From: a virus
Length of the DNA: 11,130 bases
Virus genome (UHGV): UHGV-0057427
Reading direction: 5' to 3' (one strand)
Shown here in pieces: positions 1 through 11,130 of this stretch; positions within the stretch are counted from its first letter, which is position 1, and each line of letters opens with the position of its first letter. Both the position numbers and the translations under genes were made by a program. The notes beneath the pieces are model-generated. The model saw only the letters and a program-made list of their open reading frames with translations. It had not been told where the DNA came from and did not search any database.

Positions 1-747
1 GTACATCTCGCAGATTTGTTTATGAGTACGACCATCCTGCACACACATCAGGCGAATTTCGTTTGCCCAGGCTGCCCAGTTCGGTTCTTTGGGACGAACC
101 ACCTCGCCGTCACATTCGGCGGCATGCTCGTACAGGGCGATGATTTTTTTCCAGAGCCACTGTGCGCAGGTCAAATCATCCTGCGTCCCCCACTGGCGCT
201 TTTTAGGGCTGAATACAACCGCATCAGGATGGCAAGTTAAAAAATCCTGTTCAGCCGTCTGCGTGTCCGGTTGCGAAGCGTCCGGACGAGAAGTTTTTTT
301 ATCTGACGGATCATGTTTTGATTTTACTGACGGATCCCCACCAGATTCTGACGGGTGAAAACCCGCTTTTTTGCCAGATTTCGACGCATCAAATTTTGAC
401 GGGTCAGATTTTGATGCGTCAGATTTTGACGGGTCAGAATCTGACAGTTGAGAAAATGCCGCTGCCTGAAGCTTCGCAACGTTAAGCTGATAAACATTCG
501 ACGCATTGCGGTTACCCTGGCGACGCGCCCTACGCGTTAACCAGCCTTCTGCTTCCAGCCGTGCGATAGCCGTTCTGACGGTACTCATCCCCGCGCCAAT
601 CTGGCGGGCAATGGTTTCAATTGATGGCCAGCACACACCTTCGTCATTACTGAAATCAGCCAGGCGGGCCATAATTGCCACGCTGGATAATTTCATGCCT
701 GATGCAGCGCAACCATCCCATACATAGCCGGTTAATTTAGTGCTCAT
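1..747 (-). CDS. Phage replication initiation protein, lambda O-like (N-terminal 249 codons; C-terminus off the left edge)
   Basis: Not in the ORF track because no stop lies in the window. I translated the minus strand by hand from ATG at 747-745 and found no stop through nt 1: MSTKLTGYVWDGCAASGMKLSSVAIMARLADFSNDEGVCWPSIETIARQIGAGMSTVRTAIARLEAEGWLTRR..., an HTH-like N-terminal domain followed by an S/D/P/K pentapeptide-repeat linker encoded by the 15-bp iterons. SD-like AGAGGT lies 4 nt upstream. The position after cro and cII matches lambda O. Confidence 0.6.
   Translation of the reverse strand, partial: MSTKLTGYVWDGCAASGMKLSSVAIMARLADFSNDEGVCWPSIETIARQIGAGMSTVRTAIARLEAEGWLTRRARRQGNRNASNVYQLNVAKLQAAAFSQLSDSDPSKSDASKSDPSKFDASKSGKKAGFHPSESGGDPSVKSKHDPSDKKTSRPDASQPDTQTAEQDFLTCHPDAVVFSPKKRQWGTQDDLTCAQWLWKKIIALYEHAAECDGEVVRPKEPNWAAWANEIRLMCVQDGRTHKQICEMY
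301..450. repeat. Candidate replication origin iterons: five contiguous 15-bp direct repeats (376-450) plus three degenerate copies (301-360), inside the O-like gene
   Basis: Units 376-390 agatttcgacgcatc, 391-405 aaattttgacgggtc, 406-420 agattttgatgcgtc, 421-435 agattttgacgggtc, 436-450 agaatctgacagttg; degenerate copies around 301-315, 320-336 and 344-358. In lambda the ori iterons lie inside the O gene (established knowledge). Confidence 0.6.
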
Positions 748-1095: not shown

Positions 1096-1655
1096 GCGTT
1101 AGTTTCTCCACAGTCACGACACGCCACGGCGCCCGGAGCTGCACACTCGCGGGCGTCATTACTTTCTGAAATGCAAAAAATTTTGTAGACCAGTGCTGCA
1201 TGCTCCTGCAGCTTCGAAATTGAGAGGTACAGCTCGTCGTTAATTGCTGTCTTCTCATGCGGTTCCACTACACCGTCTTCAATTGCTGAACGAATCTGTT
1301 TTGAATAACTGCCGATCTGTTCAATGACTTCCAGCAGGCGCTGGTTAATATCGGCGTTGTCCACATCCTCGACGTCAGGAAGAGACACAAAGACGCCATT
1401 TGCAGACTGCGCCACAGCATCAGCAATGAAGTGAGTGCCACCAGCACGCTGTAAAACCATTGCCCATCCCAGCGGGAAAATCTGATCGCCATCTGCACGA
1501 AGGCGGTTGAATAAAGCGTTTTCTGTTACATCGAGCCAATCAGCCGCTTCAGCGTAACCACCCGGCAACGCCGCGATAGTTTTTCTGACAGCTTTCACGT
1601 ACCACTCAGGCTGTTTTTCTATTTTCCAGTGATGCTTACCCACGATTAGCCTCAT
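1092..1655 (-). CDS. Phage regulatory protein at the CII position (CII-like/YdaT-like), 187 aa
   Basis: Intact ORF directly downstream of the cro-like gene and upstream of the replication gene, same strand, stop overlapping the next start. Assignment is positional; I cannot confirm family membership without an HMM search. Confidence 0.45.
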
Positions 1656-1686
1656 CGTTCTGTGGTTAAAAATTGAAAGTGTTCTG

Positions 1687-1887
1687 CTAATCTTTCGGAT
1701 AGATATCCGGTCTTAAGTCAGATTTCGTAATTGCACCTGACGTGCATTGCTCAAGTTTTTTAGCCAGCACAAAACTGGCTTTTTTATAGCCATTGAAAAC
1801 CAGCCGTAAGTAGCCAGGTGTTGAGCCAACTTTTCCGGCCAACTCGCCCTGCTGTTCTTTGGTTAAAGAGTCCCAATACGCTTTCAT
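1687..1887 (-). CDS. cro: Cro-like HTH transcriptional regulator (66 aa)
   Basis: The track ORF 1687-2190 has a long low-quality N-terminal extension; the internal ATG at 1887-1885 is preceded by GGAGGT at good spacing and gives MKAYWDSLTKEQQGELAGKVGSTPGYLRLVFNGYKKASFVLAKKLEQCTSGAITKSDLRPDIYPKD, a typical small Cro/YdaS-type HTH. It is divergent from the CI gene across an operator-containing intergenic region. Confidence 0.65.
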   Translation of the reverse strand: MKAYWDSLTKEQQGELAGKVGSTPGYLRLVFNGYKKASFVLAKKLEQCTSGAITKSDLRPDIYPKD

Positions 1888-1977
1888 ACAATATGTACCT
1901 CCGATGTACATATTACATGATTGAAATGAACCTTCAAGATACTTGTACCTTAACGGTACAAGGGTTTTAATTTCGTT
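1888..1977. promoter_or_regulatory. Divergent cI/cro promoter-operator region with two 21-bp palindromic operators (1892-1912 and 1942-1962)
   Basis: 1892-1912 TATGTAC-N7-GTACATA and 1942-1962 CTTGTACC-N5-GGTACAAG are perfect inverted repeats; both put two GTAC cores 11 bp apart (one helical turn). They lie between divergent repressor and cro-like genes, as OR does in lambda. Confidence 0.6.
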
Positions 1978-2652
1978 ATGAAAACAATCCATGACATCCG
2001 GCGGTCTAACGCCAGAAAACTGAGAGATGGTGTTGGCGGGAATTCTTCCTTTGCCACTATGATTGATCGCGAGCCAACCCAGACCAGCAGGTTTATGGGA
2101 GATGGTGCTACTAAAAATATCGGTGACAGCATGGCACGACACATAGAAAAATGTTTCGACCTGCCTGTCGGATGGCTCGATCAAGAACACCAGACAACGA
2201 ACATCACAAAAAAACCTGATGTTTCAATCACTAATAAACAAATCACATTAGTCCCTGTCATATCATGGGTACAGGCCGGAGCATGGAAAGAAGTTGGATA
2301 TTCTGAGGTTGATTTGAGCACAGCAGAAACGTATCCCTGCCCTGTACCCTGTGGGGAAATGACTTATATCTTGCGGGTGATAGGTGATTCAATGATTGAT
2401 GAGTACCGCCCGGGAGACATGATTTTTGTCGATCCTGAAGTACCTGCCTGCCACGGTGACGACGTTATTGCATTGATGCACGATACAGGTGAAACCACCT
2501 TCAAAAGGTTGATAGAAGATGGGACACAGCGTTATCTCAAAGCGTTAAACCCAAACTGGCCTGAGCCTTACATTAAGATCAACGGTAATTGCTCTATAAT
2601 TGGAACTGTGATTTTCTCAGGAAAACCAAGAAGATACAAAATCAAAGCTTAA
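1978..2652 (+). CDS. cI: CI-type phage repressor, N-terminal HTH plus C-terminal S24 (LexA-like) autopeptidase domain, 224 aa
   Basis: C-terminal half aligns by eye with lambda CI (TFKRLIEDGTQRYLKALNPNWPEPYIKINGNCSIIGTVI versus lambda [36 protein letters not shown]), with the GDSM serine motif and a downstream Lys. No SD precedes the ATG at 1978, consistent with a leaderless PRM-type transcript. Confidence 0.88.
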   Translation: MKTIHDIRRSNARKLRDGVGGNSSFATMIDREPTQTSRFMGDGATKNIGDSMARHIEKCFDLPVGWLDQEHQTTNITKKPDVSITNKQITLVPVISWVQAGAWKEVGYSEVDLSTAETYPCPVPCGEMTYILRVIGDSMIDEYRPGDMIFVDPEVPACHGDDVIALMHDTGETTFKRLIEDGTQRYLKALNPNWPEPYIKINGNCSIIGTVIFSGKPRRYKIKA

Positions 2653-2666
2653 TCAATGTTTATGAA

Positions 2667-2687
2667 CCTGCTTCGGCAGGTTTTTTT
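2667..2687 (+). terminator. Rho-independent terminator after the CI gene
   Basis: CCTGC-ttcg-GCAGG hairpin (2667-2680, UUCG tetraloop) followed by seven T (2681-2687), 15 nt after the cI stop at 2650-2652. Confidence 0.8.
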
Positions 2688-2691
2688 ATAC

Positions 2692-2724
2692 TTGACAATG
2701 TACCTTTGAGATACATAATGTACC
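2692..2724 (+). promoter_or_regulatory. Sigma70-type promoter (TTGACA-16-CATAAT) overlapped by GTAC-core operator-like sites, reading rightward
   Basis: TTGACA at 2692-2697, CATAAT at 2714-2719. The palindrome ATGTA...TACAT (2698-2716) and a second AATGTACC (2717-2724) share the GTAC core of the cI/cro operators. No plus-strand ORF follows; the downstream gene is on the opposite strand. Confidence 0.45.
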
Positions 2725-2802
2725 CAAGAGAAACAACAAACAGGCAGGACGCCCACGAAGTATCCGCCTGGGGCATATGAAGTCCAGGATGATTCGTTAG
2801 CA

Positions 2803-2830
2803 ACAAAAAAGCGCCCTACAGGACGCTTAG
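2803..2830 (-). terminator. Rho-independent terminator of the minus-strand zinc-ribbon gene (possibly bidirectional)
   Basis: On the minus strand: AAGCGUCC-UGUA-GGGCGCUU stem-loop (one G-U pair) followed by UUUUGUUG, about 40 nt after the TAG stop at 2867-2869. Confidence 0.65.
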
Positions 2831-2866
2831 CTCTTTAACAATCTGGATATCCACAACAGTAGTAAT

Positions 2867-3358
2867 CTACAGATTGCCGTTAAGTTTTCTGGACAACTCC
2901 TCAATGGATGGAGGCGATACGTAATCCGGATTTTTATTCATCAGAAACTTATTTTCACAGTGGAGGCACCTGCTTTTATGAAAAAGCTCATCTTCGCTAA
3001 CCGGGAATGGTTGAAGTATCGATACTATCTTTTGTCCAAAACATTTTGGGCAAAGATGCATGGTTATGCTGCCACCGTTCACGATTACCTCCTTCGAGTA
3101 TACAAAAGTACCCGACTCAAGTTGGTTAAGGATATAGCCTTCCGTCTGAGCCTCAAAGTTTTCGAATTCTGCAATTTTAGCTTTGAGAGAAGCATTTATT
3201 TCTTGATAAGAGCCCACCAGTTCAACGAGAGACACGCATTCGCGCTGAATAGACGCAAGCTTTGAGTTTAGCTCACCAATAGCCGCATTTACTTCAGCTT
3301 GAGTTTTTGCCTCGTTCATTAGTTTTGCAATCTGGGCTGTTTCACGAATAGCCGTCAT
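2867..3358 (-). CDS. Coiled-coil protein with C-terminal CxxC...CxxC zinc ribbon (163 aa), unknown function
   Basis: The track ORF 2867-3646 begins with a P/R/G-rich artefactual extension. ATG at 3358-3356 gives MTAIRETAQIAKLMNEAKTQAEVNAAIGELNSKLASIQRE... (heptad-like helical N-half) then HLCPKC-x27-CLHC. A terminator follows. SD is weak and a GTG at 3382 is an alternative start. It sits in the slot between repressor and early-left operon, on the opposite strand to both. Confidence 0.55.
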   Translation of the reverse strand: MTAIRETAQIAKLMNEAKTQAEVNAAIGELNSKLASIQRECVSLVELVGSYQEINASLKAKIAEFENFEAQTEGYILNQLESGTFVYSKEVIVNGGSITMHLCPKCFGQKIVSILQPFPVSEDELFHKSRCLHCENKFLMNKNPDYVSPPSIEELSRKLNGNL

Positions 3359-3851
3359 TGCTGCCGTTAATTCAGCGATCACATTGAATACTCTTATTGT
3401 TGTTGGGGATATCCAGATTAACCGAATCCTTGTTGTTGGGGAATAACCAGGTCCACCTCGCCTGATGTGGCTAAAAGCAGGCACATAACAGCTAAGTATT
3501 TTCAACCAGAGAGAATCCTTAGCGTTGTGGTGAATGCGGCTCAGCGCACGCGGGTTAAGGTTGAGGCTGACAGTCGACCTTCTGTGGATACCCACCCGCC
3601 CGGGGTGCAACCTTCGCCAGGCACCGGGAGGCACCCGGCACCACAACTTTATGCTGTGTGTAGTCCTGGCGGTACCAGCTTGTACCCTTGCTTCCGGCTG
3701 GTACCGTCCTTTTTACAAAACAGAGAAGAGCATCACCGGACGACGGGCTCATAACCCAATCCATCCGGGCGGCTGCCACCGCAGGTGTTCTTCTCTGTTT
3801 TGTGGAGAAACCAACCGACCTTGCAGGGTCGATATGATGAGGAGCAGCAAA
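3359..3851. promoter_or_regulatory. Long GC-rich structured noncoding region between the divergent zinc-ribbon gene and the early operon (direct repeats, terminator-like hairpin, 15-bp long-range inverted repeat)
   Basis: Direct repeats ATTGTTGTTGGGGATATCCAG (3396-3416) and CTTGTTGTTGGGGAATAACCAG (3429-3450), with a third degenerate copy near 3512-3533. Hairpin GGTACCAGC (3671-3679) / GCTGGTACC (3697-3705) followed by T5 (3710-3714). Perfect 15-bp inverted repeat ACAAAACAGAGAAGA (3715-3729) / TCTTCTCTGTTTTGT (3789-3803) enclosing 59 nt. ORFs here translate to low-complexity P/G/R-rich sequence. Confidence 0.5.
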
Positions 3852-4214
3852 ATGGCTAGCGAACGCAGTACTGATGTGCAGGCATTTATCGGGGAGCTGG
3901 ACGGCGGCGTATTTGAAACCAAAATCGGCGCAGTTCTCAGTGAAGTCGCTTCCGGTGTGATGAACACGAAAACCAAAGGGAAGGTCTCACTCAATCTGGA
4001 AATCGAACCGTTTGATGAGAACCGTGTGAAAATCAAACACAAACTCTCATATGTTCGCCCGACTAACCGCGGGAAAATTTCCGAAGAAGACACCACCGAA
4101 ACGCCGATGTATGTCAATCGCGGTGGTCGCCTGACTATTCTGCAGGAAGACTATGGACAAATACTGACTCTTGCCGGTGAACCTGACGGAAAACTACGCG
4201 CAGCAGGTCATTAA
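3852..4214 (+). CDS. Phage early protein, 120 aa (yfdP-like by position and size), unknown function
   Basis: The track ORF 3534-4214 is extended through the noncoding region; ATG at 3852 has GAGGAG 7 nt upstream and gives MASERSTDVQAFIGELDGGVFETKIGAVLSEVASGVMNTK.... It is the first gene of a co-directional operon. Confidence 0.55.
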   Translation: MASERSTDVQAFIGELDGGVFETKIGAVLSEVASGVMNTKTKGKVSLNLEIEPFDENRVKIKHKLSYVRPTNRGKISEEDTTETPMYVNRGGRLTILQEDYGQILTLAGEPDGKLRAAGH

Positions 4215-4279
4215 TATCGTTCTTAATAAACTGATTATTTATCTCATCACTGAATATCTTTATATAGTGAGGACTTATT

Positions 4280-5104
4280 ATGTCTCAGAACTTAGACGCA
4301 ACCGCAATTAATCAAATCCATGCCCTTATTTCTGCTCAGGGTGTTAATGAAATTATCAGTAAGATTGGTGCCGATGCTGTGGCATTGCCTGAGAATTTCC
4401 GCATTCATGATCTGGAAAAATTTAATTTAAATCGCTTCCGTTTCCGTGGTGCGCTTTCCACTGCCAGCATCGATGACTTTACCCGTTATTCTAAAGATCT
4501 TGCAGATGAAGGCACCCGCTGCTTTATCGATGCTGATAATATGCGTGCCGTCAGTGTGCTTAACCTGGGTACTATTGATGAACCAGGTCACGCAGATAAC
4601 ACCGCCACTCTCAAACTGAAAAAGACAGCACCGTTCTCTGCCCTGTTGTCTGTTAACGGCGAGCGTAACTCCCAGAAGTCACTGGCAGAATGGATTGAAG
4701 ACTGGGCCGACTACCTTGTGGGCTTTGATGCTAATGGTGACGCCATTCAGGCAACCAAAGCGGCTGCGGCGATCCGTAAAATCACAATTGAAGCGAACCA
4801 GACCGCTGATTTTGAAGATAATGACTTCAGCGGCAAACGCTCCCTGATGGAGTCTGTCGAAGCGAAGACCAAAGACATTATGCCAGTGGCATTTGAATTT
4901 AAATGCGTTCCGTTTGAAGGTCTGAAAGAACGTCCGTTTAAATTACGCCTCAGCATTATCACTGGCGATCGTCCTGTACTGGTACTACGCATTATTCAGC
5001 TGGAAGCAGTGCAGGAGGAAATGGCTAACGAATTTCGTGATCTGCTTGTTGAGAAGTTCAAAGACAGCAAAGTAGAAACCTTTATTGGTACTTTCACCGC
5101 CTGA
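4280..5104 (+). CDS. yfdQ: YfdQ-like prophage protein (274 aa)
   Basis: ATG with GAGGA SD; length equals my recollection of K-12 CPS-53 YfdQ (274 aa) and it is followed by an HD-domain protein of YfdR size. The assignment is by size and synteny, not by alignment. Confidence 0.6.
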
Positions 5105-5231
5105 TTTCATTACTGCAAATGCCCCTGCGGGGGCATTTATGGAAACGTAATTAACTCAATAATCACCGGATGGTGAGGGCATCCTTTTACCAGAATTCAG
5201 CGCGGTGCAGTGCATATACGTGGAGAACAAA

Positions 5232-5768
5232 ATGTCATTTATTAAAACTTTTTCCGGGAAGCATTTTTATTATGACAGGATAAATAAAGACAACATCGAT
5301 ATTAACGATATCGCGGTTTCCCTTTCAAATATCTGTCGCTTTGCAGGACATCTTTCACACTTCTACAGCGTCGCCCAACATGCGGTGCTTTGCAGCCAGC
5401 TGGTACCGCAGGAATTTGCTTTTGAAGCGTTAATGCATGATGCAACAGAAGCTTATTGTCAGGACATCCCCGCGCCACTGAAACGCCTTCTTCCTGACTA
5501 TAAACGGATGGAAGAAAAAATAGACGCCGTAATCCGTGAGAAATACGGGTTACCCCCGGTTATGAGTACACCCGTGAAATATGCCGATCTCATCATGCTG
5601 GCAACCGAACGCCGCGATCTCGGGCTTGATGATGGCTCTTTCTGGCCTGTACTGGAAGGCATCCCGGCAACAGAGATGTTCAACGTGATTCCACTGGCAC
5701 CGGGCCATGCCTACGGGATGTTTATGGAACGTTTTAACGAGTTATCGGAGTTACGCAAATGCGCATGA
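5232..5768 (+). CDS. yfdR: HD-domain phosphohydrolase, YfdR-like (178 aa)
   Basis: ATG at 5232 preceded by GGAGAA; protein contains H...HD motifs (AQHAVLCSQL...EALMHDATEAY) typical of HD-domain 5'-deoxynucleotidase-like proteins; length 178 aa matches my recollection of K-12 YfdR. The track start at 5205 lacks an SD. Confidence 0.7.
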   Translation: MSFIKTFSGKHFYYDRINKDNIDINDIAVSLSNICRFAGHLSHFYSVAQHAVLCSQLVPQEFAFEALMHDATEAYCQDIPAPLKRLLPDYKRMEEKIDAVIREKYGLPPVMSTPVKYADLIMLATERRDLGLDDGSFWPVLEGIPATEMFNVIPLAPGHAYGMFMERFNELSELRKCA

Positions 5769-6121
5769 ATGTTTTCGAAATGGAAGGGTTTCTTCGTGGG
5801 AGATGTGTACCGCGAGATCTCAAAGTGAATGAAACAGATGCTGAATACCTGGTGCGCAAATTCGATGCGCTTGAAGCTAAATGTGCGGCACTGGAAAACA
5901 AAATAATACCAGTGTCAGCTGAACTGCCACCAGCAAATGAAAGTGTTCTGTTATTTGATGCTAATGGAGAAGGCTGGCTGATTGGCTGGCGTTCTCTCTG
6001 GTACACCTGGGGACAAAAAGAAACCGGAGAATGGCAGTGGACATTTCAGGTCGGGGACCTTGAAAACGTCAATATCACTCACTGGGCAGTAATGCCAAAA
6101 GCACCGGAGGCTGGAGCATAA
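5759..6121 (+). CDS. Hypothetical prophage protein, 120 aa (yfdS-like by size and position)
   Basis: ATG at 5759 overlaps the yfdR-like stop by 10 nt, with GGAG 8 nt upstream; compact operon organisation. Confidence 0.5.
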   Translation: MRMNVFEMEGFLRGRCVPRDLKVNETDAEYLVRKFDALEAKCAALENKIIPVSAELPPANESVLLFDANGEGWLIGWRSLWYTWGQKETGEWQWTFQVGDLENVNITHWAVMPKAPEAGA

Positions 6122-6345
6122 TGACCACATTTACCAATAAAGAACTGATTAAAGAAATTAAAGAGCGTATCAGCAGCCTTGACGTGCGAGACGATATTGA
6201 GCGCCGTGCTTATGAAATCGCACTTGTATCTCTGGAAGTAGAGCCAGATGAACGCGAAGCCTATGAATTATTCATGGAAAAGCGTTTCGGTGACTTAGTA
6301 GATCGTCGGAAAGCAAAAAACGGCGATAACGAATACATGGCATGA
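6121..6345 (+). CDS. Small acidic hypothetical protein, 74 aa
   Basis: ATG overlaps the previous stop (TAATG); sequence MTTFTNKELIKEIKERISSLDVRDDIERRAYEIALVSLEVEPDEREAYELF is charged and helical with no recognised motif. Confidence 0.45.
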   Translation: MTTFTNKELIKEIKERISSLDVRDDIERRAYEIALVSLEVEPDEREAYELFMEKRFGDLVDRRKAKNGDNEYMA

Positions 6346-6425
6346 GATATGACTCTCAGCTGGGTTGTCTGTCAGCAACGCACTGGAATGAGTCTTTAAA
6401 CTGTACAACCGCTGGAGGGTCAGCA

Positions 6426-6620
6426 ATGAACAACTTAATGACAACTAAACAAGTCGCCGACTTCTGTGGCGTTTCAGTATCAACAGTACTTCGCTGGAAC
6501 AGCGTAAACAGGAGGACAGGCCAGAAATACAGGCCAGATTTTCCAGATCCTGATATTAAATCCTGCCCAAATAAATGGGCATCACGCAAGATTTATAGGT
6601 TTGCGGGAATTATTGAGTAA
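6426..6620 (+). CDS. Excisionase/AlpA-family HTH DNA-binding protein (64 aa)
   Basis: ATG at 6426 has GGAGGG 6 nt upstream. N-terminus MNNLMTTKQVADFCGVSVSTVLRW is the typical excisionase-family HTH (T-x-Q-V-A...G-V-S...T-V-x-R-W). It is the last gene of the early operon, near the integrase. The track start at 6342 adds an unlikely extension. Confidence 0.55.
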   Translation: MNNLMTTKQVADFCGVSVSTVLRWNSVNRRTGQKYRPDFPDPDIKSCPNKWASRKIYRFAGIIE

Positions 6621-6659: not shown

Positions 6660-6983
6660 ACAGAACCAAATCTAATCTGAGTGTCCACTTTGTGGTGTGA
6701 GTTCAACCGATGGATGCAACACACAGGCGGAAGCTGAATGCATACTCACCTTTGTATCCCAGCGTGCTGTAACAATGAACAACAACACTCTGGTGATTTG
6801 ACGAGTGCTTAAATTCTTTCAGTAACAATGTATTGTTAGTTTACATAGTTGTAAATAAATATAGTTTATTGTAACATTTTGCTTGCAATGTCATTTAAGC
6901 AACCTGCTTACTTTGAGGGCTTTGATGATAGATGAATCCTTACTAAAATTATCATTTTTATGTATTGATTGAAGAGAAGATTA

Positions 6984-8984
6984 ATGATAGATAAATCAAT
7001 TACTAACCCTGGTTTCCATAAGCAGTTTCTATTAGAAAGGTTCAATGCTGATGAACAAAAAATATTAAAGTTATTATCAAAAGGATGGTATTTAACTAAT
7101 TCTGGCGAGGAGTTACAAATTGCTCAATCCAGATATAATTATTTTCTGATGAAACCTACACCAAAAACCTCTGAAATGTTCAACATTGAGAGAGAGATTG
7201 TTTGTGTATTTAGTAACTACGATTATTTTGAACCAAGAACATTAGATTTTTTCGAACAAGTTTACATGCGTCTTCCAAAGATGCGCACAGAGATGGTTTG
7301 TGCTGTTCTAATTGGCAGAGCTCCTGATACAGAAGAAAAGGTTGAACAGCTTCTTAAAGCTGATCCAGAGCATCAAATCATTGTACCTGTTAGTTATACT
7401 GAAATGATGTGCACAGATGCACTTCGAACACTTGAAAATAGATTTAGAAAACATTTCTACTCTCGAGATTTATTCTCCTTTTTATCTCCACTTAAAAAAG
7501 ATACATACTTTTTTGGTCGTTCAAATCTTATCAATGAGATTGTAAATCGATTCCAATCTGGGGAGCACACTAGCCTTTTTGGTCTTAGGAAAAGCGGAAA
7601 AACATCGATTGTATATGCAATCCAGAGACGTTTAGAGGCAAAAGGAGATTGTTTTGTATCATTAGATTGCGAAAGCCCATCAATACATGGCCTTCGCTGG
7701 TATGAATTACTTGAGAAACTAGTATTATTATATCTAGAGGCAAAAAAATCTAAAGTTAAAATTAACACATCTGGTAGATATGATGTTAAGAATGCTGCAG
7801 AGAGCTTTGAAACAGATATATTAAAAATTTACAACTCAAAAAAAACAGCAAGTGCTATATTTATTTTCGATGAAATTGAAAGAATTACACCGACAACGGG
7901 AGCTTCGATTCACTGGAGAGAAGAAACCGATTTTATATACTTTTGGCAGACAATGCGCGGTTTTTACCAGAAACATCCGTCTGTTTTCTGTTATATGTTA
8001 GTTGGCACAAACCCAAGTTGTATAGAAACACCATCATTATTGGGGCATGACAATCCAATTTATGCTTCAATTCAAAGCCAATATGTTCCTCCTTTTACTG
8101 TTGATCAAGTTAGTCAAATGGTTACACGTTTAGGTGATTATATGGGATTAAAATTTGACAATTTGATCACTGCAAAACTGGCAGAAGACTATGGCGGACA
8201 TCCATTTTTAATTCGCCAAGCTTGCAGCCAAATTAACAAGCTAATCCCTTCAGATAGACCTGTAACAATTGATAAATCTCTATATAATAAGTCTAAGATC
8301 GAGTTTAGGAACAACTCTCAGGAGTATTTAGCAATGATGATTCAGGTATTGTCGGAATGGTATCCTGATGAGTACGAAATGCTATGTTTACTCGCTCAAG
8401 GGGATATGGATAGTTTCAATTCATTTGCTCAGGATCATACATCTTATACTCGACATTTAATTGGCTATGGGCTTATTCAAAAAGGCACATCTGGTTATTC
8501 CTTTAACCTTGAGGAAATTTCTGATTTGCTTAGAAAAAAACATCAACATGAAAGATTAAACCTGACAGATGAAGAAAAGGTTCAAGAGATTTCAATTAGA
8601 AGAAATCGCTTAGAAAAAGGTTTGCGGATACTTGTCAGGAACACATTAAAAATATATAAGGGTTCAAATAAAGCAAAAGATGCTGTTATTTCTGCAGTTC
8701 CTGATGGGCGAAAATCAACATTACAAAATTACGATTTATCCAAACTATTAGATCCTGATTCATCTCCATTATTCTTTCTCGAATTAATTAACATAATTAC
8801 GAGAGAGTGGGTGATTTTTGATAATGTTTTTGGGATTAATAAAGAAAAAATAAAAATTATGCTTGAGGAAATTAACACTAAAGGACGTCCAGATGCACAT
8901 GCAAAATGTATTGACGAAGATGATTTTCAGCAATTAAGGCTTTACTTCAAAAAGCTTGAGTTAATACTTCAAGAGTGGTTATAA
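6984..8984 (+). CDS. P-loop NTPase with STAND/ORC-Cdc6-type AAA+ motif order, unknown N- and C-terminal domains (666 aa); candidate defense cargo
   Basis: Walker A GLRKSGKTS (nt 7581-7607) preceded by FFGRSNLINEIVNRF, Walker B IFIFDE (nt 7860-7874), sensor-1-like MLVGTN, GxP-like YGGHPFLIRQ. Codon usage is visibly AT-rich compared with neighbours. First ATG at 6984 with purine-rich SD; track start 6969 is TTG. Stands alone between xis-like and int. Confidence 0.8.
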   Translation: MIDKSITNPGFHKQFLLERFNADEQKILKLLSKGWYLTNSGEELQIAQSRYNYFLMKPTPKTSEMFNIEREIVCVFSNYDYFEPRTLDFFEQVYMRLPKMRTEMVCAVLIGRAPDTEEKVEQLLKADPEHQIIVPVSYTEMMCTDALRTLENRFRKHFYSRDLFSFLSPLKKDTYFFGRSNLINEIVNRFQSGEHTSLFGLRKSGKTSIVYAIQRRLEAKGDCFVSLDCESPSIHGLRWYELLEKLVLLYLEAKKSKVKINTSGRYDVKNAAESFETDILKIYNSKKTASAIFIFDEIERITPTTGASIHWREETDFIYFWQTMRGFYQKHPSVFCYMLVGTNPSCIETPSLLGHDNPIYASIQSQYVPPFTVDQVSQMVTRLGDYMGLKFDNLITAKLAEDYGGHPFLIRQACSQINKLIPSDRPVTIDKSLYNKSKIEFRNNSQEYLAMMIQVLSEWYPDEYEMLCLLAQGDMDSFNSFAQDHTSYTRHLIGYGLIQKGTSGYSFNLEEISDLLRKKHQHERLNLTDEEKVQEISIRRNRLEKGLRILVRNTLKIYKGSNKAKDAVISAVPDGRKSTLQNYDLSKLLDPDSSPLFFLELINIITREWVIFDNVFGINKEKIKIMLEEINTKGRPDAHAKCIDEDDFQQLRLYFKKLELILQEWL

Positions 8985-9081: not shown

Positions 9082-10356
9082 TTATCGTTCAAAGCGGGCT
9101 GTCAGATTTGATTGAGTCCTACTAAGCAAACTATCAGTTGTGTCCGCACTAGTACAAGTAATGATCGATTCAACTCTCTCCCACCATGCCTGGTAGGCTT
9201 TACGCTGTTCTTCTAGATAATCGCTCTTGTCATAAACTTGCCATACCCCTGGCAGTTTATGACCTAGCATTATTTCTGCAATATGAGGCGCAGTAAGATC
9301 AGAAAAGTTTGTTCGTGCTGTTCGCCTCAAATCATGAAGAGACCAATGAGGGAATTGATACCCCAAACGCCGCCATGCGTACTGCATTAAATTGTAAGGC
9401 AGCGACTGCAATGATGTCCGACCAACGGGTTCCCTGCTTCCTTCCTTAGTAAAAAGCATATCGGAACCATTATTCATAGAAATAGCGTACTTTATAAGCT
9501 CTTCAACCGGTTCAATAATGGGCCGCTTTAGCGGTTCGCCCGTTATCTCCCCAGTCTTATGTCGTTCTGGTGGTACAGTCCATACTTTATTAATGAAATC
9601 AAAATCGTCCACCCTGGCGGTAATTAGCTCTGAACTACGGCAGCCAAAATGCAGCAATAGTTTAATGAAGGCCCGGTATTTAGGAACCATTCGAGAACCA
9701 TCGATCGCAGCATAAAGGATTTTAATTTCATCATGTGTCAGAAACCGTTTCTTCTGACCTTTACGGATATCCATATCTTTACCCGTGATATCCGACAACG
9801 GGCGAGTTTCAATGAGCTTTCTCTTATACGCCCAGACATGGGCCTGCTTTGCGTTAATTAGCAATCGGTCTGCTATTGCTGGAGTCTTAGTGCTAAGAGG
9901 CTCCAGGACTTCTAACCAATCATGCAATGTAGCTGCATCGTGAGGGATATTCCCGATTTTAGAGAACAGGTGCAGCTCAAACGAGCGGAGTATCTGTTCA
10001 GAACCTTTTTTATTTTTTACACAATATGCTTCATACCAGGCACGGATCACAGACTCTACCGTCATGGCTTCAGTAGCTTTTCGTTTTTCAGCCTGCTTGA
10101 CCAATCGTGGATTACGGTTTGACTCGAGTTCACCACGGAGACGGGTAACTTCTTCTCTGGCCTCTTTTAATCCAGTTGCCGGGTAAGTTCCGATATCAAG
10201 ACGCTCACCTTTCCCTGCCCATTGATAACGATATTGGAACACTACGCGACCTTTCGGTGATACTCTGACAGACAGACCATCACGATCGGATTTAACCAAA
10301 ACCTTATCACGTTCCTTTCCAACGACTGAACGCAACCACGCATCAGACAGCGCCAT
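9082..10356 (-). CDS. int: Phage integrase, tyrosine recombinase (424 aa)
   Basis: N-terminal arm-binding-type region (GLSVRVSPKGRVVFQYRYQWAGKGERLDIGTYPATGLKEAREE), C-terminal catalytic signatures HDLRRTART and conserved Tyr region (LGHKLPGVWQVYDKSDY). It lies adjacent to the host junction. Confidence 0.9.
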   Translation of the reverse strand: MALSDAWLRSVVGKERDKVLVKSDRDGLSVRVSPKGRVVFQYRYQWAGKGERLDIGTYPATGLKEAREEVTRLRGELESNRNPRLVKQAEKRKATEAMTVESVIRAWYEAYCVKNKKGSEQILRSFELHLFSKIGNIPHDAATLHDWLEVLEPLSTKTPAIADRLLINAKQAHVWAYKRKLIETRPLSDITGKDMDIRKGQKKRFLTHDEIKILYAAIDGSRMVPKYRAFIKLLLHFGCRSSELITARVDDFDFINKVWTVPPERHKTGEITGEPLKRPIIEPVEELIKYAISMNNGSDMLFTKEGSREPVGRTSLQSLPYNLMQYAWRRLGYQFPHWSLHDLRRTARTNFSDLTAPHIAEIMLGHKLPGVWQVYDKSDYLEEQRKAYQAWWERVESIITCTSADTTDSLLSRTQSNLTARFER

Positions 10357-10741: not shown

Positions 10742-11130
10742 TCAGTGTTTACACAGGAGCTGCTCCAGTTCGTGCAACGAAGAAACGGTCCAGGTGGGCG
10801 CGATGCCTTCTGGTTGCTCGCGATGGTGCGCATTCAGCCAGCAGGTCGCAAGCCCGGCGTTGATGCCACCGAGAATATCGGACTCGGCAGTGTCGCCAAC
10901 CATCAGCACGCGTGAACGGTCAGGATTGCCCGCCTGTTCCAGCGCATAATCGAAAATTTTCTTATTCGGTTTGGCAACGCCAACTTCTTCGGAAATCACC
11001 AGCAAATCGAAGTAATCACGCAGGCCCGTGCGTTCCAGACGCACTTGCTGCAAGGCGCTAAAGCCGTTGGTGATGATGCCGATTTTGGCGTTGCCACGAA
11101 TGGCGTTAAGCAGAGAAACCGCGCCCGGCA
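10742..11130 (-). CDS. yjjG: Pyrimidine 5'-nucleotidase YjjG (HAD family), C-terminal part; N-terminus beyond window end
   Basis: Minus-strand translation ...[117 protein letters not shown] matches the E. coli YjjG C-terminus as I recall it; TGA stop at 10744-10742. Confidence 0.9.

Follow-up and report, generated by a model that had tools for sequence, protein, structure and literature searches.

A putative early-left promoter of an SfV/SfIV/e14-type lambdoid prophage precedes a conserved, structured leader RNA

Introduction

What is transcribed from a near-consensus promoter that lies under repressor-type operators and has no open reading frame directly behind it? The question arose for a stretch of 11,130 nt from virus genome UHGV-0057427 (hereafter the window), in which such a promoter follows the terminator of a cI-like gene on the plus strand. 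The initial annotation of this stretch proposed that the promoter yields a CI-regulated RNA of roughly 100 nt, ending in a hairpin at 2803-2830, or that it exerts antisense control over a convergent zinc-ribbon gene. In lambda and P22, the early-left promoter and operator (PL/OL) follow cI and its terminator and are oriented like cI, and the early-left region is ordered cI, terminator, OL/PL, nutL, and N. Here, we compared the window with related prophages and analyzed the promoter, its operators, and the RNA that would be transcribed from it.

Results

The window belongs to a lambdoid prophage and covers its immunity and early-left region

Judged by its sequence, the window corresponds to the immunity and early-left part of a lambdoid prophage of the SfV/SfIV/e14 type. 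Positions 1600 to 4300 were 99% identical to Escherichia phage PhiR49_1 and, over the shared parts, 98% identical to the Shigella phages SfIV and SfV, and the segment comprising the end of cI, the promoter, the convergent (moron) gene, and the start of yfdP was present in thousands of E. coli genomes. A cro-like gene of the ymfT/croE type (1687-1890, minus strand) was assigned from its ORF and the Cro/ymfT annotation in 99%-identical records, its Pfam matches (HTH_3/YdaS) being weak. The cI repressor gene (1978-2652, plus strand; ymfK/cohE type) encodes a LexA-like S24 peptidase (Pfam Peptidase_S24, E=1.5e-26) and is annotated as cI or ymfK in relatives, ymfK being the e14 repressor. Two exact TGTAC-N7-GTACA palindromes in the cro/cI intergenic region (1894-1910 and 1944-1960) represent OR-type operators, and the SfV record labels the matching interval (1894-1960) "putative operator region." The intrinsic terminator of cI (2664-2690, plus strand; hairpin 2664-2683 plus a T run) is annotated as a terminator in the SfV and Ayreon records.

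Outside this core, units resembling TCAAAATCTGAC are repeated on both strands at 318-506, inside or adjoining the replication gene, and look like replication-origin iterons; they were the source of a spurious miRNA Rfam match, and both miRNA-family Rfam matches in the window were dismissed as chance. No tRNA genes were found in the window. Between the xis-like gene and the integrase, a 671-aa ORF (6969-8984, plus strand) with weak STAND-NTPase/AAA matches (nSTAND1, PADLOC PDC-S01) is possibly a prophage-borne defence gene. The integrase gene (9082-10356, minus strand) is convergent with the early-left operon, whereas int is co-oriented with PL in e14 and PhiR49_1, and it abuts a host HAD-type hydrolase gene (10742-11053, minus strand), so that the integration module differs from that of e14 and PhiR49_1. 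Within the PR-side "immunity region" of SfV and Ayreon, positions 448-636 (minus strand of each locus) matched the C4 antisense RNA as well as an isrK-like RNA, with scores that exceeded the Rfam gathering cutoffs; no Rfam matches to these two RNAs were obtained in the window.

Operator sequences of the cI/cro type lie over a near-consensus promoter

Directly behind the cI terminator, the plus strand carries a promoter at 2692-2719, with a -35 element TTGACA (2692-2697), a 16-nt spacer, and a -10 element CATAAT (2714-2719), from which we infer a transcription start near 2726. In a scan of positions 1500 to 4400, this was the best site, with matches at 11 of 12 positions. The number of promoter-like sites in that region was not above chance (3 found, 4.6 expected from shuffles), and the case for the promoter therefore rests on its quality, position, and conservation. 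More than 120 IMG/VR contigs matched a 28-base pattern built on the promoter, its sequence was identical in the e14 element of E. coli K-12 (L005), and the record of phage Ayreon annotates the same site as "promoter."

Allowing at most one mismatch, TGTAC-N7-GTACA occurred three times in the 11 kb, at 1894, 1944, and 2699, a number reached in 0 of 200 shuffles. The third site, OL1 (ATGTACCTTTGAGATACAT; 2698-2716, core 2699-2715), differs from the OR palindrome at one position; it takes up the promoter spacer and reaches into both hexamers. The half-site AATGTACC at 2697 recurs at 2717, as part of a 19-nt direct repeat with copies 20 nt apart. The region over the -10 element and the start (2718-2736) may hold a second, degenerate operator, with an intact left half-site (ATGTACC) and a poor right half; this copy (2719-2735) departs from the operator pattern at two positions and is a 79% direct repeat of OL1. 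These checks of terminator, promoter, and operators indicate that the sequence features listed in the initial annotation are real and non-random, the copy around the second half-site being the weaker one. A strong promoter under operators of the cI/cro family makes repressor control very likely, as had been proposed. Consistent with this, published data show that expression of two e14 genes, ymfJ (which lies behind the identical promoter) and intE, goes up at a late stage of the SOS response, a behavior ascribed in that study to a CI-like repressor (PMC11002266).

The promoter lies where PL is expected, at the head of the early-left genes

From its sequence context, we interpret the promoter as the early-left promoter of an SfV/SfIV/e14-type prophage, the analogue of lambda PL/OL. 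It lies downstream of cI in the same orientation and diverges from cro/PR, it is a sigma-70 promoter overlapped by OR-family operators, and it heads an operon of early accessory and recombination genes that extends to xis/int. The order cro (minus), cI (plus), terminator, promoter, and plus-strand genes up to xis/int was found in e14, SfV, Ayreon, PhiR49_1, and E. coli 2013C-3181. In K-12 e14, ymfJ comes next after the promoter, with xisE and intE further along that strand; the genes behind the promoter are orf33 and orf32 in SfV and yfdP, yfdQ, yfdR, yfdT, and the integrase gene in E. coli 2013C-3181 and PhiR49_1. It was at the PL position, heading the early-left operon, in every relative examined.

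The earlier statement that nothing codes downstream is accurate for the first 1.1 kb, with no supported plus-strand ORF between 2726 and 3852, and fails beyond that point. There, the early-left operon (3852-6620, plus strand) starts with yfdP (3852-4214) and continues with yfdQ (DUF2303; 4280-5104), the HD hydrolase gene yfdR (5205-5768), several small ORFs, and a gene for a xis-like HTH protein (6342-6620). The ORF-free stretch exists because a moron cassette has been inserted in reverse orientation, pushing yfdP to 3852. The downstream early-left genes could have promoters of their own.

The transcript begins with a conserved RNA motif supported by covariation

Shortly behind the start, a covariation alignment and the covariance model derived for it (R1) define a conserved leader motif (2733-2802, plus strand), predicted to fold as a three-way junction. 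Its outer helix P0 (2735-2740/2793-2798, with an A.C mismatch at 2738/2795 in the window's copy) encloses the GGC/GCC helix P1 (2743-2745/2751-2753) and the helix P2 (2767-2772/2783-2788). P1 and P2 are linked by the near-invariant joiner CACGAAGTAGCYG (2754-2766; consensus CACGAAGUAGCYG), the loop of P2 (GGCATAYGAAGN) belongs to a conserved 10- to 12-nt loop with the consensus GGCAUAYGAAGN, and an AUGA (2789-2792) separates P2 from the 3' strand of P0. P0 pairs the 5' flank with the 3' tail of the motif and occurs as AACGAA/UUCGUU, AGCGAA/UUCGCU, CCACC/GGUGG, and GUCAUC/GAUGAC. With distant phages included in the alignment, compensatory changes were found in 11 of the 15 pairs, and 90.9% of cells were paired, compared to 76.7% in shuffles (0 of 500) and 23 to 48% when the partners were slid. 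Folding of single sequences was no better than for shuffles (z of -0.6 to -1.1), and the structure therefore rests on covariation among related sequences. A first RNAalifold consensus, derived from E. coli sequences only, had paired the internal ACGAA with the 3' UUCGU; this helix was replaced by P0 because, with distant phages, the 5' flank pairs and covaries with the tail (CCACC/GGUGG, GUCAUC/GAUGAC, and AGCGAA/UUCGCU).

When IMG/VR loci were aligned downstream of the promoter, the conserved block ended in ATGATTCGTT and the sequences then diverged, placing a mosaic junction right after the 3' helix of the motif. The motif was found behind at least six unrelated operator/promoter types, beginning about 6 to 25 nt past the inferred start in most of them and later in the L130-type loci (hexamers read by eye). 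A 65-nt query located the motif in 45 phage records, from Escherichia, Shigella, Salmonella, Klebsiella, Citrobacter, Yersinia, Pantoea, and Pectobacterium, and a Kosakonia genome also carried it, giving nine genera in all. None of the 45 records had a matching non-coding annotation, and four listed only a "hypothetical protein" CDS. In most phage records inspected, the motif lay 100 to 220 nt after a cI-type repressor gene, and it was followed by varied early-left genes, including homologues of kil, recE, gam, and yfdP.

Model R1 gave 74 to 95 bits on every member and 91.4 bits in the window. The complete PhiR49_1 genome and each locus yielded a single copy, invariably at PL, and no match came from the PR side or from HK022, Ayreon, or the Rac-like locus. 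When a looser pattern (GAATCATN{18,40}ASTTCGTGG) was run over genome contigs, 2 of 120 loci were real by nhmmer, namely L208 (Kosakonia) and L310 (E. coli). A search of Rfam at E values up to 1 gave no match at the motif, and searches of the literature brought up no description of such a leader; the RNA appears to have gone undescribed so far.

Behind an identical PL, a different, also conserved leader (type 2) replaced the R1 motif in Ayreon (L002, 2620-2760) and in 49 of the 120 IMG/VR loci, and L130-type loci carry a type-2-like piece ahead of the R1 motif. With roughly 40% of the loci that have the same promoter carrying another leader, the R1 motif is not obligatory for this promoter. Between the type-2 leader and HK022 putL, a 15-nt near-match (CATGCGTCG..AGCG) was seen, which was not significant (E of about 0.1).

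A reverse-oriented moron and its terminator lie directly behind the leader

Phage morons are autonomous genes with a promoter and terminator of their own that are inserted in phage operons. The zinc-ribbon gene of the initial annotation is taken to be a moron and encodes a 171-aa protein (2867-3382, minus strand; phrog_1244) with a coiled coil and a C-terminal CxxC...CxxC motif, for which Pfam, PADLOC, and PHROGs gave no function. The cassette (2830-3490) was absent from SfV, e14, and Ayreon and was found with 93.5% identity in an unrelated Rac-like prophage of O157:H7, where it lies just downstream of the repressor-proximal gene and antisense to it. The moron gene is flanked by the arms of a 26-nt imperfect inverted repeat (2840-2865 and 3394-3419), each with a GGATATCC palindrome, which are kept in cassettes with 55 to 68% protein identity; they could be a recombination or mobility site or binding sites for a regulator.

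The hairpin at 2803-2830, previously described as "shared," does exist, and it turned out to be the intrinsic terminator of the moron gene (2809-2828, minus strand). Its minus-strand form has 8 pairs and ends in U6 (dG of -14.1 kcal/mol), compared to a C.A mismatch, no U tract, and a dG of -7.5 on the plus strand, where it is weak. Hairpin variants keep a U.G pair on the minus strand, which is the C.A mismatch on the plus strand.

These observations bear on two other explanations of the locus. Dismissing the promoter-like sequence as a chance match or a decayed, inactive relic would agree with a site count that does not exceed that of shuffles; it is hardly credible for an 11/12 match with an operator in its spacer, a sequence matched in more than 120 contigs and identical in e14, where the genes behind it are SOS-induced. 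The proposed short RNA (about 100 nt, CI-regulated, ending at 2803-2830, and acting in trans or as a dedicated antisense RNA of the zinc-ribbon gene) is very unlikely, even though 1.1 kb without a plus-strand ORF, a hairpin some 85 to 100 nt downstream, a conserved and structured leader, and, in many E. coli prophages, a reversed terminator directly after that leader would all suit it. The weakness of the hairpin on the plus strand, together with an asymmetry that is kept in the variants, makes a discrete 100-nt plus-strand RNA improbable, and the sequence after the leader differs between relatives, so that promoter, leader, and hairpin do not make up the single conserved unit that would be expected for a stand-alone trans-acting sRNA; in YeP1, AH07, Kosakonia, SfV, and e14, coding genes directly follow the leader. 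A promoter at the PL position with a whole early-left operon downstream likewise argues against a dedicated short RNA. Antisense transcription across the zinc-ribbon gene is plausible as a by-product of convergent transcription after induction, which would silence the moron as a side effect, rather than an established regulatory design. Hence, the small-RNA or antisense-gene reading is largely replaced by that of a PL/OL displaced from its operon by a reverse-oriented moron.

A boxA and an STnc100-like element lie on the path to yfdP

Exactly where the PL transcript would enter the antisense moron, the plus strand (PL sense) carries the boxA-consensus sequence GCTCTTTAACAA (2830-2841), the single exact match in the window to the gamma-proteobacterial consensus GYTCTTTAANA (PMC5725501). 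Of 80 moron cassettes, 74 retained the boxA, even where protein identity was as low as 55 to 68%, with one common substitution (C to T at position 2) that the consensus allows; in the Rac-like O157 prophage it reads TGCTCTTTAACAA. It is thus situated on the early transcript, as in a nut site, and upstream of a long untranslated RNA (plus strand, 2726-3852), as are the BoxA elements of rrn operons and CRISPR arrays, whose boxA/Nus-factor antitermination protects them from Rho (PMC7665894). A search for a lambda-type boxB and N gave, 3' of the boxA, only a 7-bp stem (CAATCTG/CAGATTG) with a loop of about 24 nt in the moron inverted repeat (by eye) and no N-like ORF. By analogy, the boxA could protect the untranslated stretch from Rho; GC skew gave no clear Rho-loading signature antisense to the moron. 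Alternatively, the boxA may be left over from an ancestral nut site or may belong to the 3' UTR of the moron.

Further downstream, the transcript would cross an STnc100-like structured element (3494-3717, plus strand) before reaching yfdP. It scored 35 bits with Rfam RF02076 (STnc100), below the gathering score of 47, and a sub-threshold RF02076 match was found at the same place in SfV, mEp460, ST64B, and e14. The element ends in a strong hairpin (3668-3708, followed by U5 up to 3714; dG of -28, z of -4), and the SfV record annotates a terminator at this place. The e14 annotation treats the STnc100-like stretch as a coding sequence, ymfH; this ORF is probably spurious and overlies the RNA element.

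The leader occurs in phages that apparently lack N

The put RNAs of HK022 allow read-through of terminators by binding the RNA polymerase beta' zinc-binding domain, and copies lie after both PL and PR. The RNA of about 70 nt that is transcribed right after PL in HK022, described as two stem-loops, makes RNA polymerase terminator-resistant without a phage protein (PMC9378689). The leader motif is likewise transcribed right after PL in phages apparently without N. SfII, SfIV, and SfV, which have been reported to lack N, cII, and cIII, carry the motif, whereas SfI, Sf6, and SfX, which have these genes (PMC3851460), were absent from the 45 motif records. In PhiR49_1, Q is annotated and N is not. 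Among eleven phages, the first ORFs after the motif were mutually unrelated and not arginine-rich and gave no N-family Pfam match.

We also considered whether the leader is itself a member of the put family, which was rejected given the lack of significant similarity, the other architecture, and the absence of a PR-side copy; a shared GUyCArGGAUGA is a lead only. Searching with putL by blastn returned HK022, HK75, O276, phiEt88, HK639, and others and none of the motif-bearing phages, and a local blastn comparison of leader and put gave only an 11-nt match (E of about 0.3 in a tiny search space).

Discussion

Taken together, the locus is probably best described as a CI-repressed PL/OL analogue followed by a covariation-supported leader, most likely a cis-acting processivity device. 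In the lysogen, CI encoded just upstream would bind the operator in the promoter spacer and keep the promoter off, as suggested by the identity of the operators and the published e14 data, and inactivation of CI would permit transcription from near 2726. About the first 70 nt of that transcript (2733-2802) are predicted to fold into the conserved three-helix RNA. The polymerase would then cross, in turn, the reversed moron terminator, the boxA (2830-2841), some 500 nt antisense to the moron gene, and the STnc100-like element with its strong hairpin and U5, before arriving at yfdP-yfdQ-yfdR...xis. We propose that the leader RNA acts in cis and independently of protein to keep early-left transcription processive over this variable, terminator-containing, and partly untranslated stretch, and that the moron-borne boxA probably recruits NusB/NusE and other Nus factors, shielding the untranslated antisense part from Rho.

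For the leader itself, a role as a cis-acting antitermination or anti-polarity element analogous to HK022 putL is the most likely single function, at somewhat less than an even chance; it ranks first because N is apparently absent, barriers precede yfdP, and HK022 offers a precedent. A nut-like site for an RNA-binding protein of phage or host origin (an N analogue encoded elsewhere, or a host factor) would account for a joiner and P2 loop that are almost invariant while the helices covary, as for a specifically recognised RNA, and the GAAG-containing P2 loop recalls the loops of lambda boxB. We hold it to be unlikely, although a host factor is conceivable: the motif travels with no conserved gene, the ORFs nearest to PL bear no relation to one another, are not rich in arginine, and gave no N-family Pfam match, SfII, SfIV, and SfV are reported to be N-less, and there is no second copy on the PR side. 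It is quite unlikely that the leader has no part in elongation and instead stabilises the 5' end of the early-left mRNA, marks a processing site, or senses a ligand or a condition: its place near the 5' end of the transcript and a three-way junction with an invariant core, resembling riboswitch aptamers, would fit such roles, set against a sequence that changes right after P0 with no conserved expression platform or ribosome-binding site following, the lack of an Rfam riboswitch match, and some 26 invariant nucleotides that a plain stabiliser would not need.

The promoter in itself is ordinary, being the PL of a common prophage family with the same sequence in E. coli K-12 e14, and the interest lies in the RNA that is transcribed first. 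In many lambdoid phages, namely SfII, SfIV, SfV, e14, ST64B, and the mEp group, N cannot be recognised, which raises the question of how transcription of the early-left operon gets past terminators and inserted morons. One concrete and mutable candidate is the covariation-supported RNA, present once per phage right behind the PLs of many immunity types in nine genera, and a boxA tied to an antisense moron suggests how morons can sit in operons without polarity. For annotation, the leader motif and the STnc100-like element are elements that are currently unannotated or called small "hypothetical proteins," such as e14 ymfH.

Compared to the early-left regions of lambda and P22, the window has the same arrangement relative to cI and cro, a strong sigma-70 promoter under OR-family operators, an operon ending in xis/int, and a boxA consensus on the transcript. 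It differs in lacking N and in a promoter that is not directly followed by a boxA-boxB nut site; its first transcribed element is instead the 70-nt three-helix RNA, and its boxA is part of the moron cassette and not of the leader. Close parallels are the immunity regions of e14 and SfV/SfIV, which share the identical promoter and operator, cI and cro annotated as the same genes (ymfK, ymfT), and the same leader motif. In e14 and SfV, however, a plus-strand ORF (ymfJ, orf33) stands straight after the leader, where the window has the reverse moron cassette with its boxA. As in other morons, the 2867-3382 gene comes with a terminator of its own, is missing from close relatives, and recurs in another prophage type at an equivalent place, but it is antisense to the host operon, is flanked by 26-nt inverted repeats, and has a boxA on the opposite strand. 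This boxA resembles those of rrn operons and CRISPR arrays in matching the gamma-proteobacterial consensus exactly and in being placed where a long untranslated stretch begins; in rrn leaders, a hairpin precedes boxA, as it does in the window. Its setting is different, namely a phage early operon and a mobile antisense moron to which it is tied.

With HK022 putL/putR and the putL-like element of HK639, the leader shares a size of about 70 nt, a structured nature, and a location right after PL in lambdoid phages without N. It is predicted to form a three-way junction in which P0 encloses P1 and P2, in contrast to the two stem-loops of put, and it is found in another set of phages as a single copy per genome or locus, with no PR-side partner. 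It is conceivable, and we advance it with considerable reserve, that the leader is a third early antitermination device of lambdoid phages beside N/nut and put, one that is protein-independent and serves N-less phages of Enterobacterales, in which reverse morons bring their own boxA against polarity.
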